39,600 bases of DNA from a virus (Duplodnaviria > Heunggongvirae > Uroviricota > Caudoviricetes). Of the stretch, positions 3,470-9,262 are shown piece by piece (positions within the stretch are counted from its first letter, which is position 1; each line of letters starts with the position of its first letter). Made by a program: the position numbers and the translations under genes. The notes below the pieces were generated by a model, which was given only the letters and a program-made list of their open reading frames with translations, was not told the origin of the DNA and did not search any database. The DNA is taken from positions 1-39,600 of IMG/VR virus record IMGVR_UViG_2563366930_000006. One strand, given 5' to 3'.

Positions 3470-3611
3470 TGTCTGTCATTTAATTTGCTCCAGATACAAG
3501 GAATCGCCGCAGCATGGCTACGGTTGATGTTTGTTGCATACCGAAATGGTACGATTGTTGATTTGTACAGTAGGTTTTACGATGCCATTCCACCCATTTG
3601 GTGAGGCATTG

Positions 3612-3869
3612 ATGATGTACAGCAAATACGATGAGGCGCAGTTCCACTTGAGGCTTACGCACGAGTTGCACGCTAAGATTAAGCAGCGTGCAAAAATGAA
3701 TAACAGGTCTATCAATTCCGAAATTGTGGCTACGATGGAAGAATCACTCTCCAAACCATCACCTGTAAGCGGGTATCGTGATGAAGAAGAGAGGTTGGCC
3801 TCATTAATCTCGGAGCGAGTAAAAGAAGTTGCGGCTGATATCCTTAGAAAAGAAAAAACCCGCGATTAA
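3612..3869 (+). CDS. mnt: Mnt-like ribbon-helix-helix repressor
   Basis: NNRSINSEIVATMEESLSKPSPVSGYRDEEERLA resembles P22 Mnt; GGTGAGG RBS before tandem ATG ATG at 3612. Confidence 0.75.
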   Translation: MMYSKYDEAQFHLRLTHELHAKIKQRAKMNNRSINSEIVATMEESLSKPSPVSGYRDEEERLASLISERVKEVAADILRKEKTRD

Positions 3870-3880
3870 GCGGGTTTAGT
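3853..3880. terminator. Bidirectional intrinsic terminator between convergent genes
   Basis: Stem CCCGC/GCGGG with loop GATTAA, A-run on one side and T-rich tract on the other; the mnt stop codon lies in the loop. Confidence 0.6.
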
Positions 3881-3883
3881 TGG

Positions 3884-4105
3884 TTAGTTATCAAAAAGTC
3901 CGTACGTTTCTTCTTCTTCAGGTGTAAGGGGAAGAATCTCTACTCTATCTATAGATATCTTTTCAATGTACCCATGAGGTCTACTTAAAATTAAAGCTCT
4001 CTCATGCCACAGAACTCCAAGAATGTGATACCTTCCAGCATCGCCTTTTACCCTGGCTCTTCCTTTGATTCTTGGCGGCATAATGCCATATTTTTTCTTT
4101 GCCAT
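3884..4105 (-). CDS. Hypothetical 73 aa protein, translationally coupled to the upstream gene
   Basis: ORF with ATG overlapping the upstream stop by one base (TAATG); followed by the bidirectional terminator. Confidence 0.45.
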   Translation of the reverse strand: MAKKKYGIMPPRIKGRARVKGDAGRYHILGVLWHERALILSRPHGYIEKISIDRVEILPLTPEEEETYGLFDN

Positions 4106-4833
4106 TATGCAACATTACTCCCATGAATCAGGTGTTGTAGTGCTTTAACACCTTCCTCATTGTAGCGGAATGCTTCCACCTGTTTGCTGGAATGCGCAGA
4201 TTTATCCAGGAAGAACTTCCCGTACTGCTCAGTTTTGAGGTTGTTTGCGTTAGCAATGCGACCAATCTTGTTGGCCGTTACTCCAAGCTGCTCTGCAACC
4301 TCCCCTGCTGAGTAGTAATGCTCTTCTATTGCTGGAAGAGGTATTGCATTAAAACCAACGATCGGGTTGATTATGCTTGCTGCCGCAGTCTGCTTTGCTT
4401 CCGGCGCAAGATTTGGCATCAAATCGAACAGATTGGTAACAGCTTCAACCGTCATTTTCAATGTTCGCGCCTGGCGATACTCAACAAGTCCACTAGACGA
4501 TTTACCGCTTTTAATGTGCGCTTCTTGCATACTTTCAAGTTGGTCTACAAGTGAGCGGCGAACAGCTTTAGATTCACGAGCAGCCACTCGAAGGGCTTGC
4601 TTAATTGACATAACAACTTTTTCAGAAGTTGTCTTGTTTGATTTTTGAACTACGAAAATTTCGTAGTGCTCACCTTCAAGTTCATCCTTAATGCGTGCAA
4701 TAAAGTCGTTATTGCGGACTTCTTTTTCCCCGCACTGTCTACGAGCATGATTGACCATCTCTAACAGGTACTGGCTATCAATGGTTTTATCCGTGACAAC
4801 GGATCCGATGTTTGCTACATTCTTAAAAGTCAT
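4105..4833 (-). CDS. Antirepressor-like protein with C-terminal KilAC-type domain
   Basis: C-terminal YSAGEVAEQLGVTANKIGRIANANNLKTEQYGKFF resembles the KilAC domain; ATG at 4833 with AAGGAA RBS; upstream in-frame codons judged non-coding. Confidence 0.6.
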   Translation of the reverse strand: MTFKNVANIGSVVTDKTIDSQYLLEMVNHARRQCGEKEVRNNDFIARIKDELEGEHYEIFVVQKSNKTTSEKVVMSIKQALRVAARESKAVRRSLVDQLESMQEAHIKSGKSSSGLVEYRQARTLKMTVEAVTNLFDLMPNLAPEAKQTAAASIINPIVGFNAIPLPAIEEHYYSAGEVAEQLGVTANKIGRIANANNLKTEQYGKFFLDKSAHSSKQVEAFRYNEEGVKALQHLIHGSNVA

Positions 4834-4902
4834 TAGGCATTCCTTATGTGGTAGTAAGGGTGTGACATAGGCCGCCAGCAGCACACTGGCGGTTTTCTTT
4901 TT
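4829..4902 (+). ncRNA. Candidate sar-like cis-antisense RNA (copy 2) over the start and RBS of the KilAC-domain gene
   Basis: Extended -10-like TGCTACATT at 4813-4821, then a canonical intrinsic terminator (stem GCCGCCAG/CTGGCGG, then TTTTCTTTTT) at 4871-4902 on the strand opposite the gene. Confidence 0.35.
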
Positions 4903-4921: not shown

Positions 4922-5548
4922 TCAATGAATCCATTCCTCGCCGCGCAGTTTTGCCAGCATTGGCTGAGCGTTCTTTACGACAAAATTGTTGGTATCAAGA
5001 TTCTTCATTTCACGAAGAAGTGATTTCTTGGTTTCTTCTGACATGTAGCGAGTCTCATATGCAATATCGTAAATCCTTCCTGAAAGCTCAGAACCAATTT
5101 GCTTCATTCCTGGGTAGATGTGTTTGCACATTTGTTGACTCTTCTCCATCCACAATTGTAAGTAGCAGAGATTAACCAGTTCTTCGTCAGTAAACTGTTT
5201 TGCAATCGGTGAGCATTCTGCCTGCCGATCCAAAATATCCAGCACCCAGCGGCGGAACTCTTTGGCTACCTGAGTGCGAGCAAACATCGCGATTAGGTGG
5301 GCACCGCGTAGTGAGAAAACACGCACTTTTTTGCGATAATTTCCTGAGGTACTCACTTCGAGTACCTGAGTCATTCCGGCGCTAAACTCATCGCTATACT
5401 TGTTATAAATCATTGTTACTGCACGACTATTTGCGTATTTAAGTGCAGATGCAATATTAGATGATGTAAACCAAACACCATGCATATCACGGGTGGGCAC
5501 CAATTCAACTCCGTGGAAGTTGTAATCTGATTTTGCTACAATATTCAT
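4922..5548 (-). CDS. ant: Antirepressor with AntA/Bro-N-type domain
   Basis: N-terminal region FHGVELVPTRDMHGVWFTSSNIASALKY typical of AntA-like antirepressors; ATG at 5548 with AAGGAAA RBS; sits downstream of arc. Confidence 0.7.
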   Translation of the reverse strand: MNIVAKSDYNFHGVELVPTRDMHGVWFTSSNIASALKYANSRAVTMIYNKYSDEFSAGMTQVLEVSTSGNYRKKVRVFSLRGAHLIAMFARTQVAKEFRRWVLDILDRQAECSPIAKQFTDEELVNLCYLQLWMEKSQQMCKHIYPGMKQIGSELSGRIYDIAYETRYMSEETKKSLLREMKNLDTNNFVVKNAQPMLAKLRGEEWIH

Positions 5549-5625
5549 GTTAGTTTCCTTGCATACGGTTACTGACATAGAGGCCCGGTTTGTGTTCACG
5601 CACTGCCGGGCTTCACTATTTTTAC
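5549..5625 (+). ncRNA. sar: Candidate sar-like antisense RNA (copy 1) covering the ant RBS and the arc-ant intercistronic region
   Basis: Extended -10-like TGCTACAAT at 5534-5542 directly antisense to the ant start; stem GCCCGG/CCGGGC at 5582-5610 then T-rich tract; same architecture as P22 sar. Confidence 0.4.
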
Positions 5626-5795
5626 TGGGCATTAGCTCTTTCCTCTCTCAGGCTTTTAGCCAGTCGCTGCACAATCGCAGAGTTGATAGAAATTCCATCC
5701 ATTTCAGCAACACGTCTAATCTCCTCCTTCATTCGCGCTGGCAAACGAAGCTGGAAACTTTGACTTTTACGACCTGTGTAAAGCACATCTTTCAT
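5622..5795 (-). CDS. arc: Arc-like ribbon-helix-helix repressor
   Basis: 57 aa; SQSFQLRLPARMKEEIRRVAEMDGISINSAIVQRL is an RHH fold; GGGAGGA RBS before ATG at 5795. Confidence 0.75.
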   Translation of the reverse strand: MKDVLYTGRKSQSFQLRLPARMKEEIRRVAEMDGISINSAIVQRLAKSLREERANAQ

Positions 5796-5822
5796 AAGTA
5801 ATCCTCCCACAATGATACCAAC

Positions 5823-5838
5823 TTGGTTCTAGAACCAA
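5823..5838. promoter_or_regulatory. Perfect 16-bp palindrome TTGGTTCTAGAACCAA in the divergent arc / mnt-like promoter region; candidate RHH operator
   Basis: Exact inverted repeat read directly in the 111-bp divergent intergenic region. Confidence 0.5.
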
Positions 5839-5906
5839 TTTAACACCATTTATTTTGATGTCAAGTTGGTGCTATTGTTTAGCGAACATCTTTACGTTGA
5901 GGTCAT

Positions 5907-6227
5907 ATGAGCAAGTTCCCTAGTCATGAAATGGATAGGTTCAATATCAGGCTTCCTGCAGGAATGCGGGATGCTATAGCTGAACGAGCCAAACGTAACG
6001 GCAGATCAATGAACTCAGAGATTGTTCAGATACTGGAAGATGCCTTGAATGCAGAAAATACACTCGGGGAAATAGCAGATAAAATCAACAGCGTCTCGGT
6101 TCCGCTAAATGTTGATGCGCTAGTTCAACTTCAAGCCCAGGTTATCGCCATGCAAAAAGAAATACAGGAAAAGTTCAGAGAGCAGAACGAAAAGTTGAGA
6201 GAACTGCTAAACAAAAAAACCACCTGA
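5907..6227 (+). CDS. Second Mnt/Arc-family RHH regulator with C-terminal coiled coil
   Basis: RFNIRLPAGMRDAIAERAKRNGRSMNSEIVQILEDAL is an RHH motif; divergent from arc as mnt is in P22. Confidence 0.7.
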   Translation: MSKFPSHEMDRFNIRLPAGMRDAIAERAKRNGRSMNSEIVQILEDALNAENTLGEIADKINSVSVPLNVDALVQLQAQVIAMQKEIQEKFREQNEKLRELLNKKTT

Positions 6228-6245
6228 CGGTGGGTTAATTTTTGC
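6216..6245 (+). terminator. Possible terminator after the second mnt-like gene
   Basis: Stem CCACC/GGTGG with the stop codon in the loop, T-rich tract 5 nt downstream; non-canonical spacing. Confidence 0.35.
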
Positions 6246-6260
6246 CTTTTTTGGACCATA

Positions 6261-6289
6261 TTGACTACTCATAAAATGAGATCAATATT
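6261..6289 (+). promoter_or_regulatory. Candidate promoter for the YjzC-like gene with a palindrome CTCATAAAATGAG in the spacer
   Basis: TTGACT at 6261-6266, inverted repeat CTCAT-AAA-ATGAG at 6268-6280, A/T-rich -10-like hexamer near 6283-6289. Confidence 0.3.
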
Positions 6290-6325
6290 TAATCGCCCAA
6301 TAACGGGTGCATGTTGAGGTATATC

Positions 6326-6505
6326 ATGGCGAAAAAACCAGGTGAAAACACAGGAAAAAACGGCGGAATATACCAAGAAGTTGGCCCGCGCGGAGGTAAG
6401 AAAGACAATTTTGCCACCGTCAAGGACAACGAAAGGCTTCCGCCAACAACAAAGCCAGGTCATGGCTGGGTATTAGATAAGCGAACTCCAGACAGCAAAA
6501 AGTAA
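6326..6505 (+). CDS. YjzC-like small protein (59 aa)
   Basis: KPGENTGKNGGIYQEVGPRGG...RLPPTTKPGHGW fits the YjzC-family pattern; GAGGT RBS before ATG at 6326. Confidence 0.55.
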   Translation: MAKKPGENTGKNGGIYQEVGPRGGKKDNFATVKDNERLPPTTKPGHGWVLDKRTPDSKK

Positions 6506-6511
6506 TAATCA

Positions 6512-6533
6512 AGCCGGGTCACTCCGGCTTTTT
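6512..6533. terminator. Intrinsic terminator after the YjzC-like gene, overlapping the stop of the convergent HExxH gene
   Basis: Stem AGCCGG/CCGGCT with loop GTCACT then TTTT. Confidence 0.5.
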
Positions 6534-6884
6534 GATATGTCGCTCGCAGAACTCAACAAGCCTGCTCATTAAGTAGCAGTAAGTCTCGTTGGCTCTTCCT
6601 GGTTCAACATCAACGCCGACCCTTGAGCAGATATCGAATGCCATGTGAGCGCACTCATGGGCAATAGTAGATAGTTTGCCATTGAACACACCTATCACAT
6701 GCAAAACACCATTCTCGCTGCTCATTGTATGAGACGCTCCGTTGGCATCCGAGTCCTGCACGTCCACGCCAAGTTTTTGATGCAGGCGTTGCCATTCTGG
6801 AAAGTCTCTGCAAAACACAATTGTACCGCTCTCAAAGAGCGGAACGAGCATTTTTGGTACGTTTCCAATGTTAACTTTTTTCAT
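6519..6884 (-). CDS. HExxH-motif protein, possible ImmA/IrrE-like (M78) metallopeptidase domain
   Basis: 121 aa; segment NGVLHVIGVFNGKLSTIAHECAHMAFD carries an HExxH motif in a context resembling ImmA-like peptidases; the family assignment is tentative. Confidence 0.45.
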   Translation of the reverse strand: MKKVNIGNVPKMLVPLFESGTIVFCRDFPEWQRLHQKLGVDVQDSDANGASHTMSSENGVLHVIGVFNGKLSTIAHECAHMAFDICSRVGVDVEPGRANETYCYLMSRLVEFCERHIKKPE

Positions 6885-6914
6885 GGTATCCTGCTCAAAA
6901 CTAAGGAGGTTGGT

Positions 6915-7142
6915 GTGAAGCGATGGTTCCTCATAATTACTGTTTTCGCGATCATTTACACTATTTTCCCTGCGTTAAAAGCACCAATGCAAATAATTTC
7001 GCTAGCAATAATTGCAATTGGTGCTTTCATTGCAGTAGCCGTACTTGTGTTTAAGGTTTTAAAGTTTTTAGTTTGGCTATCAAAAGATGATGGATGCAAA
7101 GTTCATCAAGAAAAAGAAGGCAAAATAACCAAAGTTGACTAA
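6915..7142 (+). CDS. Small predicted membrane protein (about 75 aa, two hydrophobic helices), GTG start
   Basis: Strong RBS TAAGGAGGT before in-frame GTG at 6915; hydrophobic stretches WFLIITVFAIIYTIF and IISLAIIAIGAFIAVAVLVF; no competing ORF on the other strand in this gap. Confidence 0.4.
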   Translation: MKRWFLIITVFAIIYTIFPALKAPMQIISLAIIAIGAFIAVAVLVFKVLKFLVWLSKDDGCKVHQEKEGKITKVD

Positions 7143-9262
7143 CTGTCACTAGCGAGCCATGTAATAATCCCCGTGCGGGCAATGGTTTTTGCTTCATCTG
7201 TTGATAAGGTTTTCTCCCATCTCTTAAATGCCCCAGATTGCATCAGTTTCCTTTCTATTACGCGTCTCACTTCTGCTCTGTCTACTGGTGCGTTTTGCAG
7301 GCGAAATAGCATTGATTTAAACTCAGGAGAAGACAGTAGAGCATCAGCAGCCTTTATCCTGCTTGTTTTCCCTGACATCAATGCTGACGTTATCACCCCT
7401 GTTGCACCTACACCAGGAAGACCAGATAAGCTTGTAATACCTTCCGCCGCAGCAGCTTTTGAGGCTATTCCATAAATTTTTGCGAGACTACCCTTTTCTT
7501 TCAGAAAGTTATTAACTTGCTGATCCACAAGGCTGCTAGCATACTGCTTACCAGTATTGAGTCTATTCATAGCCTTGGCTGCTTGATAAATCGTATCAAG
7601 GCGCTTTGATGCATCTGTGCCAATAGCATCACGGAGAGCCTTCATATTGGCCCCATTGCGTGACATTCCGTTATACCATTTTACAAATCCATCAACCCCT
7701 AATTGCTGACCTGGTGATTTAGCATAGCTGGTAAATGCTTTATTCATTGAGGTGAGCGCAACTTCCTGCCGCATATCCTTTGGAATTGACTTCATTAATT
7801 GCCTAAAGTCACCACCGTTTCCTTTTGCCATATTAACAACGGCACTTTCAACTTTTGGAATTGCTGATTGCTGAAGTTTTCTACCCAAAACGGTTACGGC
7901 ATCATCTTCAATGGATTTTCGTGTTTTTACCAACTCCTTACCAAGCGTCCATAACTCCCCTGCGCCATATTTTTCTGCGACAGCCTGTTGGTCATCTGTT
8001 ATAGCCGCATATAACTTTTTAAGAACACCTGTTTCTTCATCCTTGAATGGGCCAGAGCCTTTGCCAATAGCTTGCCCAACCTGCTTTCTAGCGAGATCTA
8101 AACGCCCATACGTTGGCAAGGTGTTTGGATCAAGTCGGTTCAATGTCCGCTTCATTATTGGAGATAATTCATCAATTCCACCTATATCATCAGCAAAATC
8201 CTCTAAAAAATTCAATGTATTAGTTGCCTCAATCCGGTCTCTTACAGGAACCTTTTCGGCAATTTTGTTGTAGATGTTATCTGACTGATTTTGTAATGAT
8301 GAAATGGTTTTATCAAAATTATCTGCAAGCCTGTCAGAAACCAGTTGCTTATCAAGGCTTCCCCCAAATGAAGTTATCATTTCATCAGCTTTTCTTCCTA
8401 ATTCAGTAATAAAACGCTTATGCGCCTCACTAATCTCTGTTCCAGGGAGACTTGCCACTGCATTATCAAGAGCCCTGACAGCAGGATTATTAGAGATCAT
8501 GCCTGGAGTGGCATAATTTTCCAGTTCTAGCTCACGAATAGCATTTATCGCGTTAAAATCAGGATTAACTTCATCGGCGAAATCTTGAATAGCTCGTTGC
8601 CCGCCGATAAATTTATTGTCCATTGCGCCAGCAGCTTTCTTTAACGTTGCTTTAGATGATTTACTACCCATCCCTACGGATGAGCGATAAATATCTCCGG
8701 CACTATTTTTAATTTTTCCTGCAATCTTCCCAAGCGCTGGACCAACAATCTCTGCTACAGGGCCAGCCACAGCGCCAATAGCAGCTCCAGAAGCAACATC
8801 GCTATTTGTTCCATTGGCTACAATAGCCCCTTCTCCAGCACCAAGCCCTGCGGCGGCAGCCAGCCTTGCCGCCCCTTTCGGAACCTGAGAAATAATCCCA
8901 CCACCACTAACAAATGGCGCTGCTTGTCCAACAAACTCACCAACATCTTGTGCGGTTGATGGTTTTGCCGCTAACTTCTGCTGTAGAGACTGAATTGCGG
9001 CTTGCTCTTCTGGTGTCATATCCTGAAACAGGCCAACACCTTTACCAACATCCATCAATCCACTGAGAACGCCATACATAAAACGGTCGAAACCGTTAGC
9101 ATTATTAACAACATTTTCCTGTCTGGAATTTTCCTCTGGTGAAACCAAAGGAGATTGCTGCTGTTCTGGTTGGGAATCAAGCACAAAGCCATCAGGAAGT
9201 TGTGAGTTATCAGGCTGTTCATCCAGAACAAACCCCTCTGGTAAACCTACATTGGTTGCCAT
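7139..9262 (-). CDS. Ejection / DNA-transfer protein, gene 16 position
   Basis: 707 aa ORF last in the 7-20-16 ejection-protein series; Gly/Ala-rich central region; assigned by position. Confidence 0.65.
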   Translation of the reverse strand: MATNVGLPEGFVLDEQPDNSQLPDGFVLDSQPEQQQSPLVSPEENSRQENVVNNANGFDRFMYGVLSGLMDVGKGVGLFQDMTPEEQAAIQSLQQKLAAKPSTAQDVGEFVGQAAPFVSGGGIISQVPKGAARLAAAAGLGAGEGAIVANGTNSDVASGAAIGAVAGPVAEIVGPALGKIAGKIKNSAGDIYRSSVGMGSKSSKATLKKAAGAMDNKFIGGQRAIQDFADEVNPDFNAINAIRELELENYATPGMISNNPAVRALDNAVASLPGTEISEAHKRFITELGRKADEMITSFGGSLDKQLVSDRLADNFDKTISSLQNQSDNIYNKIAEKVPVRDRIEATNTLNFLEDFADDIGGIDELSPIMKRTLNRLDPNTLPTYGRLDLARKQVGQAIGKGSGPFKDEETGVLKKLYAAITDDQQAVAEKYGAGELWTLGKELVKTRKSIEDDAVTVLGRKLQQSAIPKVESAVVNMAKGNGGDFRQLMKSIPKDMRQEVALTSMNKAFTSYAKSPGQQLGVDGFVKWYNGMSRNGANMKALRDAIGTDASKRLDTIYQAAKAMNRLNTGKQYASSLVDQQVNNFLKEKGSLAKIYGIASKAAAAEGITSLSGLPGVGATGVITSALMSGKTSRIKAADALLSSPEFKSMLFRLQNAPVDRAEVRRVIERKLMQSGAFKRWEKTLSTDEAKTIARTGIITWLASDS

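Follow-up and report, generated by a model that had tools for sequence, protein, structure and literature searches.

Gene content and setting of the locus

The window analysed here is the whole 39,600-nucleotide stretch of IMG/VR record IMGVR_UViG_2563366930_000006 (Caudoviricetes), by its sequence a P22-like prophage. Four small genes at 5907–7142 were investigated, in particular a 75 amino acid (aa) membrane protein gene, here termed TM75, which stands where phage P22 carries the exclusion gene sieA. An earlier note on this DNA had described four small genes between a gene 16-like gene and arc and had suggested that they may together form an exclusion or defence module. All four open reading frames (ORFs) were present, on alternating strands, and all carry RefSeq coding sequence (CDS) annotation in Escherichia coli 55989. 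They encode a 106-aa ribbon-helix-helix (RHH) regulator (5907–6227, + strand), a 59-aa protein corresponding to P22 orf59a (6326–6505, +), a 121-aa HExxH protein corresponding to hkcC of P22 and HK620 (6519–6884, −) and TM75 (6915–7142, +; phrog_7294, 3e-49). The flanking genes are arc (5622–5810, −) and a gene for a 707-aa gp16-type ejection (DNA transfer) protein (7139–9262, −).

On one side of the locus is a homologue of gene 16 (ejection protein) and on the other a homologue of gene 9 (tailspike), both belonging to a P22-like late operon. The region between these genes has been named the ant moron, with sieA, hkcC and 59a listed in P22 (Villafane et al. 2008, PMC2629481). Homology to 59a, hkcC and the sieA promoter (PsieA) of P22 identifies 5907–7142 as the gene-16-proximal arm of a P22-type ant moron (immI plus accessory genes) in a P22-like E. 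coli prophage. Position, gene order and strands equal those of P22. The differences are a 75-aa gene with no relation to sieA in its place, other alleles of mnt, arc and ant, a second Mnt-like gene and a second anti-repressor gene after ant, and a gp16 of another type. The 707-aa protein (phrog_6704; phrog_770 'DNA transfer protein', 1.5e-26) shares 23 % identity with P22 gp16, a distinct type, and is 99.6 % identical in phages EC.P3 and E212. A 1.9-kb stretch of the locus was 99.4–99.9 % identical to prophages of E. coli SBF22, DETEC-E601, ET826 and 55989.

A block shared with P22 ends at the sieA start codon

Comparison with P22 delimited a mosaic block at 6211–6917 (AF527608 13828–14535) with 97.5–98 % DNA identity (megablast 97.5 %). 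Roughly 620 E. coli genomes have the block. In a base-by-base alignment, identity was 96–100 % over most of the block and 74–88 % in 50-column windows at both of its ends; outside the block it was 45–60 %, the level of unrelated sequence. Both junctions are sharp, the left one lying inside the 3′ end of mnt (6211) and the right one at the sieA start codon (6917). The P22-pbi record (L001) was mapped to the window by adding 3210 to its coordinates. Under the block it lists, in order, the last mnt codons, orf59a, the terminator 't mnt', 320 bp without annotation, PsieA and the first sieA codon. The 320 bp hold an intact ORF on the opposite strand, whose protein is identical to that of the 121-aa ORF in the window.

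The gp16-type neighbour and the roughly 98 % identical block containing PsieA bear out the earlier placement of the locus at the position of sieA in P22. The claim that four genes as a set occupy this position did not stand. By sequence homology, mnt, 59a and hkcC are P22 backbone genes, and only the 75-aa gene stands at the sieA position. Because these three genes are present in P22 alongside sieA, they are not a module substituting for it. That all four genes act together as one exclusion or defence module in place of sieA is accordingly highly improbable, even though they are adjacent, a SieA homologue is lacking, and conflict systems repeatedly include regulators, small metallopeptidase domains and membrane proteins. 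As well as coexisting with sieA in P22 at approximately 98 % DNA identity, hkcC and 59a accompany 10 other genes at the same position and also occur in phages that lack this position altogether; the TM75 gene is found without them in EC.P3 and E212; and the four genes have alternating strands and separate control signals.

Unrelated putative envelope proteins are fused to one promoter and start codon

PsieA, annotated in P22-pbi (L001 3645–3675), maps to 6855–6885 (+) of the window. Before the start codon at the sieA position (hereafter the slot), 83 of 85 bases are identical to P22. With just 85 bp of upstream DNA, sieA gives exclusion of at least 1e7-fold, and the gene in this form suffices both in Salmonella and in E. 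coli cells (Leavitt et al. 2024, PMC10883804). Given the identity of 83 of these 85 bases, expression of TM75 in the lysogen is a reasonable inference. The promoter is followed by a conserved ribosome-binding site (RBS) and start codon, AAGGAGGTTGGTGTG, at 6903–6917 (+).

To describe the slot contents, 80 viral contigs encoding hkcC were combined with P22 and the window, giving 82 loci. These loci read ...CAAAACTAAGGAGGTTGGTGTG and then, from the start codon on, continued into 11 mutually unrelated protein families, among which BLASTP found no similarity. The most frequent was a 161-aa lipoprotein (17 loci), followed by SieA (13), a 129-aa secreted protein (11), two 109-aa N-anchored coiled-coil types (10 and 8), the 75-aa type of the window (8), a 106-aa protein (5), a 62-aa protein (4) and 68-aa (YobH family), 149-aa and 99-aa proteins (2 each). 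The RBS and start codon are common to 10 of the 11 families, while the lipoprotein family retains AAGGAG only and has its own ATG start. A computed N-terminal hydrophobic segment was present in 8 of the 11, and the other three have a lipobox or a signal-like N-terminus as judged by eye. For the ten representatives other than TM75, the YobH assignment was the sole informative match in Pfam, PHROGs, NCBIfam and PADLOC, with PHROGs returning only families of unknown function; Pfam matched none of the others, and PADLOC matched none at all. The P22-type gp16 occurs with five different cassettes.

Variability of the region was published in 2008 (Villafane et al., PMC2629481), sieA was found in only 22 of 66 P22-like phages (Leavitt et al. 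2024, PMC10883804), and a 'recognized hotspot of immunity' is how the literature already views the sieA site. No account of many unrelated envelope proteins being joined, exactly at the start codon, to a single promoter and RBS was found in the searchable literature. SieA is the sole characterised occupant of the slot, and two thirds of sequenced P22-like phages lack it. If one promoter drives unrelated small envelope proteins, the slot offers about ten natural candidates for new blocks to podovirus DNA delivery, among them the 75-aa protein, which is small enough for exhaustive mutagenesis; published P22 recombineering and plating assays are applicable to all of them. A broad reading, which is possible though speculative, takes the slot as a promoter-fused cassette site in which at least 11 unrelated envelope-targeted proteins would each be a different blocker of phage genome entry, with the 75-aa protein as a minimal exclusion family matched to its own gp16 and the hkcC/59a pair as a separate conflict unit.

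A different arrangement was seen in phage Kapi1 (L181 5715–6257), which is integrated at argW and has a gp16 with 52 % identity. It has no hkcC or 59a, and in its slot two short ORFs, of 102 and 60 aa and each with a signal peptide, converge on gene 16.

TM75 as a candidate exclusion protein

The description of a two-transmembrane (TM) protein with a strong RBS was confirmed. TM75 has two hydrophobic segments, and its GTG start lies 5 nt after AAGGAGG. The protein begins with MKR, followed by a hydrophobic segment at residues ~4–21, the linker KAPMQ, a second hydrophobic segment at ~26–46 and a charged C-terminal tail. From this layout the protein is predicted to form a hairpin in the inner membrane, its N- and C-termini both being cytoplasmic. 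The gene is fused at its start codon to the P22 sieA promoter and RBS, and its stop codon overlaps that of gp16 by 4 nt.

The TM75 gene was linked to the 707-aa gp16 type at all eight loci where it occurred. This linkage persists in EC.P3 and E212 despite a different left flank: everything left of window position 6884 is replaced, and only TGGTATCCT...AAGGAGGTTGGTGTG remains upstream. In these two phages (EC.P3, L002 1949–4031; E212, L003) the TM75 gene and the 707-aa gp16 are kept at 99 % identity. A word-indexed search for remote homologues of TM75 returned nothing beyond E. coli and Salmonella proteins at ≥85 % identity, which were intact and spread over hundreds of contigs. The intact state of the gene in these contigs and its linkage to one gp16 type count in favour of the exclusion reading.

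A separate observation concerns the replaced flank of EC.P3 and E212. There, hkcC and 59a give way to a gene with a SocA/Panacea antitoxin domain and its 139-aa partner, and a Mnt-like RHH gene is followed by one of ClpP-like type. Thus, a second variable site, able to hold toxin–antitoxin-like genes, lies between mnt and the slot.

TM75 shares with P22 SieA the slot, promoter, RBS and start codon. It is likewise predicted to be an integral inner-membrane protein of a P22-like prophage, and its gene is likewise convergent with, and abuts, the gp16 ejection-protein gene. Like sieA, it stands behind PsieA and adjacent to gene 16, on the side that faces the gene 9 homologue. Mutations that escape SieA lie in gp16 and gp20 (Leavitt et al. 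2024, PMC10883804). The P22 sieA promoter, RBS and GTG are kept, and the sieA coding sequence is exchanged for that of a 75-aa protein predicted to be an inner-membrane hairpin. Most likely, TM75 would be made in the lysogen from PsieA, take its place in the inner membrane with its two ends on the cytoplasmic side and, as SieA does, hinder superinfecting P22-like phages at the membrane stage of DNA delivery. The reading of the region as an ant moron with mnt, a 59a/hkcC pair and, in the sieA slot, TM75 as a PsieA-driven SieA-like exclusion protein has about an even chance of being correct. Thus, the exclusion or defence role proposed earlier is contradicted by the comparative data for the four-gene set, whereas position, promoter and predicted membrane location make it plausible for TM75 alone.

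Small phage or prophage inner-membrane proteins encoded in moron-type units, such as T4 Imm and HK97 gp15, stop genome injection. TM75 would be an analogue of these proteins by general description; their target phages and mechanisms differ.

TM75 is a smaller protein than SieA (~160–200 aa, 3–4 TM segments): type A SieA of P22 has 162–164 aa and three predicted TM segments, and types B and C are longer with one more (Leavitt et al. 2024, PMC10883804). Several results weigh against an exclusion role. In line with the earlier statement that no sieA-like gene is present, BLASTP of TM75 against P22 SieA found no similarity (E=3.6), and the conserved cytoplasmic SieA motif FxRYPxEAxxFNK is absent from TM75. 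Its predicted periplasmic loop is only ~5 residues long, so contact with ejection proteins would need to be intramembrane. A consensus promoter scan of the region picked up no PsieA-like site. Substitutions in the TM75 gene (4 synonymous and 6 non-synonymous) are too sparse to show selection. TM75 matched no family in PADLOC, Pfam or NCBIfam. Other genes of prophage hotspots, for example Tai, work by quite different means.

The family searches, PADLOC among them, assigned no function to TM75. None of the four proteins matched a defence model of PADLOC-DB 2.0, the RHH protein giving only a chance-level match to PbeC (E=0.005); P22 SieA itself also has no model in that database. No function for the 75-aa family was found in the searchable literature.

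The lack of any defence family match also bears on the doubtful, though possible, alternative that TM75 is a lysogenic-conversion factor with no exclusion role, altering host physiology for instance by modulating a membrane transporter or sensor. Many small two-TM bacterial proteins regulate host membrane proteins, and one other slot cassette, the YobH-family member, is a small protein of host type. Against this, the one protein of the promoter-fused slot that has been characterised acts in exclusion, the TM75 gene is strictly linked to one ejection-protein type, and the slot contents are nearly all envelope-targeted with fast turnover, as expected for phage–phage conflict. If the TM75 gene has no phage phenotype, it is simply another moron variant.

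A further alternative follows from the layout of the protein. Its size, two TM segments, charged C-terminal tail and predicted inside location of both ends recall class II holins and small membrane toxins, so that TM75 could be a toxin that is holin-like or depolarises the membrane and works as an abortive-infection effector or a type-I-toxin-like peptide. The likeness is superficial, and TM75 does not qualify as a class II holin or pinholin. Its gene lies outside any lysis cassette, has no holin match in Pfam or PHROGs and is stably maintained in hundreds of assemblies. An ungated toxin would be lethal behind so strong an RBS and a promoter that is known to work in lysogens, and there is no adjacent antitoxin candidate specific to TM75. 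A toxin is therefore improbable, and SieA-like exclusion remains the preferred reading for the slot gene.

HkcC is a probable zinc peptidase

The 121-aa HExxH protein described earlier was found at 6519–6884 on the minus strand, the sense strand of the late operon, with the motif HECAH (H76-E77-x-x-H80, numbered from Met1) and a further glutamate, E100. P22 itself has the gene, whose DNA is 98 % conserved between phages of Salmonella and of E. coli. Allele substitutions were predominantly synonymous (29 synonymous and 4 non-synonymous), and hkcC is under purifying selection. Homologues with up to 48 % identity occur in Moraxella, Proteus and Rosenbergiella. Among 1.84 billion representatives, a profile search recovered 581 clusters, nearly all of them stand-alone proteins of 105–140 aa; in a genome collection with one genome per species, hkcC was found at only two loci.

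An alignment of 68 relatives (27 % mean column identity) showed only four invariant residues, namely both His and the Glu of HExxH plus another Glu located 20 residues beyond the second His. This spacing agrees with the thermolysin-type gluzincin signature. HkcC itself carries this combination of HExxH and a family-conserved Glu ~20 residues downstream. An AlphaFold2 (AF2) model built from this alignment, with a predicted local distance difference test (pLDDT) score of 94.5, consists of a small beta-sheet, a helix bearing HExxH (70–87) and a helix starting from the Glu (99–115).

Database matches were weak. No Pfam or NCBIfam model matched HkcC. SprT-like (PF10263) matches were obtained for 13 of the 68 relatives, the best at E=1e-4, and for HkcC itself there were none. 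A PDB profile search returned only myroilysin and BMP1 (E=0.02–0.3), and the neighbours of the model in BFVD were uncharacterised proteins of many phages, a few of them named SprT-like (two) or 'Metalloprotease'. The best structural and profile matches, all of them weak, are zinc peptidases. HkcC resembles gluzincins and small SprT-like zincins in having HExxH plus Glu and, in its predicted model, a sheet, active-site helix and Glu helix, whereas it has only 121 aa and no extra domains. Together, the motif and the model indicate that HkcC is most likely a small zinc metallopeptidase of gluzincin type, with a family placement no closer than 'zincin-like'. An anti-repressor protease of the ImmA/IrrE (M78) type next to mnt was also considered and was rejected, with no support from sequence or fold.

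The start of hkcC lies ~30 bp from the slot start codon, sharing these bases with PsieA, and the DNA beyond varies with the cassette. Therefore, no conserved promoter region belongs to hkcC alone. Its mRNA most likely arises by late read-through from gene 16, transcription that is known to run across the ant moron (Villafane et al. 2008, PMC2629481).

Remote relatives of hkcC (<40 % identity) were seen co-directional with their neighbours inside other phage operons, with no 59a partner. One lies between a DUF5675 gene and an Rz-like lysis gene (L171 4001–4360), one after a DnaT_2 replication gene (L169 975–1343) and one between head-morphogenesis and tail genes (L005 4965–5300).

59a, a putative distant YjzC-family member, is paired with hkcC

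The 59-aa protein is 98 % identical to P22 orf59a (phrog_3202, 7e-31), from which it differs by one residue (H47 instead of N47). Its earlier description as YjzC-like holds only transitively. The match of 59a itself to YjzC (PF14168) scored 19.4 bits, below the cut-off of 25; homologues at 50–60 % identity carry PF14168, and closer ones are named 'YjzC family protein' in UniRef. The protein is thus probably a distant member of the family.

Independent promotion of 59a had also been proposed. A sigma-70-like site, TTGACT-17-AATATT (9 of 12 matches), is present upstream at 6261–6289 (+) as a pattern at chance density: three such sites were found in the region, with 3.0 expected by shuffling. Both hexamers were unchanged in all related loci examined, in a block that is 97–98 % conserved anyway. 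The P22 record places the mnt terminator after 59a. The reported palindrome in the promoter spacer does exist (CTCAT-AAA-ATGAG, 6268–6280) and is a minority allele, present in 11 of ~70 related loci. As an operator it was rejected, since P22 and most other loci read CTTAT, in which the T breaks the repeat, and it is probably due to chance. Another chance-level match, GTGACA-16-TATTTT at 7122–7149 (−), lies at the overlap of gp16 and TM75, directed towards hkcC and antisense to TM75.

The genes 59a and hkcC are convergent and 10–25 bp apart, with one terminator hairpin of 8 pairs in common (6511–6530; 't mnt' in P22), which overlaps the hkcC stop codon. The viral-contig scan for 59a was swamped by near-identical loci. 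The pair was found in at least five phage contexts: P22-like phages, locus L086, a tail-tube-bearing prophage of Proteus penneri that also has mnt/arc/ant of its own, a Rosenbergiella cluster of lambda-like tail genes, and a position after the lysis cassette in Xenorhabdus. In the P22-like arrangement 59a lies on the prophage-expressed strand and hkcC on the late-operon strand.

Functional coupling of the two genes is plausible from this linkage. One specific form of it, which we offer tentatively as no better than a minority possibility, is a functional two-gene unit. In it, the 59a product, made in the lysogen from its own promoter, and the late zinc peptidase HkcC would act on one another or share a target; the late protease might, for instance, remove a lysogen-expressed factor so that the phage avoids self-interference. 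Retention of the pair in several contexts, with its convergent arrangement and common hairpin, would fit such a unit; the pairing also holds where hkcC has diverged to a profile E-value of 1.7e-12 while 59a is 76 % identical, and hkcC is always co-directional with the flanking late genes, with 59a opposed. However, each gene is also found alone (59a without hkcC in S. bongori and in compost contigs, and remote hkcC relatives in operons lacking 59a), interaction or cleavage between HkcC and 59a is purely hypothetical, and the linkage could be hitch-hiking within a small mobile block. Neither the zincin assignment of HkcC nor its pairing with 59a was found in the searchable literature. A probable zinc peptidase paired with 59a offers a concrete experiment in the best-studied podovirus.

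The Mnt-type regulator and neighbouring genes

The second RHH regulator reported for the cluster is indeed an RHH protein, with a Pfam Arc (PF03869) score of 73.1 bits (gathering cut-off 20.4; E=1.6e-20) and a match to phrog_1287 (3e-47). It is not a regulator of the small-gene cluster. The gene is divergent from arc–ant, with a palindromic intergenic region that contains a promoter-like site, and its product is an Mnt-type regulator of immI (arc–ant). Identity to P22 Mnt was 54 % over the RHH part only (residues 12–48), and the C-terminal part is unlike the tetramerisation region of P22 Mnt. Such a repressor would control the anti-repressor. A weak terminator-like hairpin, CCACC-TGAC-GGTGG, spans the mnt stop codon (6220–6233); it is T-rich on both sides and its alleles vary.

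The divergent control region between arc and mnt (5811–5864) corresponds in position to Omnt/Oarc/Pant/Pmnt as annotated in P22. It contains an imperfect 40-bp palindrome (5811–5850) with a perfect 16-bp core, TTGGTTCTAGAACCAA, and a Pant-like promoter on the minus strand, TTGACA-16-TAAATT (5864–5837). The arc-like RHH repressor gene (Pfam Arc, E=1.1e-11) is the first of the arc–ant operon and overlaps ant at 5622–5632. The ant gene (4922–5632, −) encodes Bro-N and P22_AR_C domains (PHROG anti-repressor Ant, 5e-65). No Rfam family reached its gathering threshold anywhere in window positions 1–39600, so no sar antisense RNA was recognised between arc and ant.

Directly downstream of ant lies a second immI-like set (3531–4884). 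It consists of a Mnt-like RHH gene (3531–3869, +), the C-terminal half of whose product resembles P22 Mnt, a 73-aa ORF (3884–4105, −) and a second anti-repressor gene (4105–4884, −; phrog_1726). The window therefore has two tandem anti-repressors with two Mnt-type regulators.

At the far end of the moron, the tailspike gene (4–2955, −; Pfam Head_binding, 3e-63) encodes a P22 head-binding domain joined to endosialidase domains (beta-propeller, catalytic and chaperone). Given this endosialidase tailspike, K1-capsulated E. coli is presumably the target of the phage. E. coli 55989 has a different, shorter tailspike at the corresponding place.

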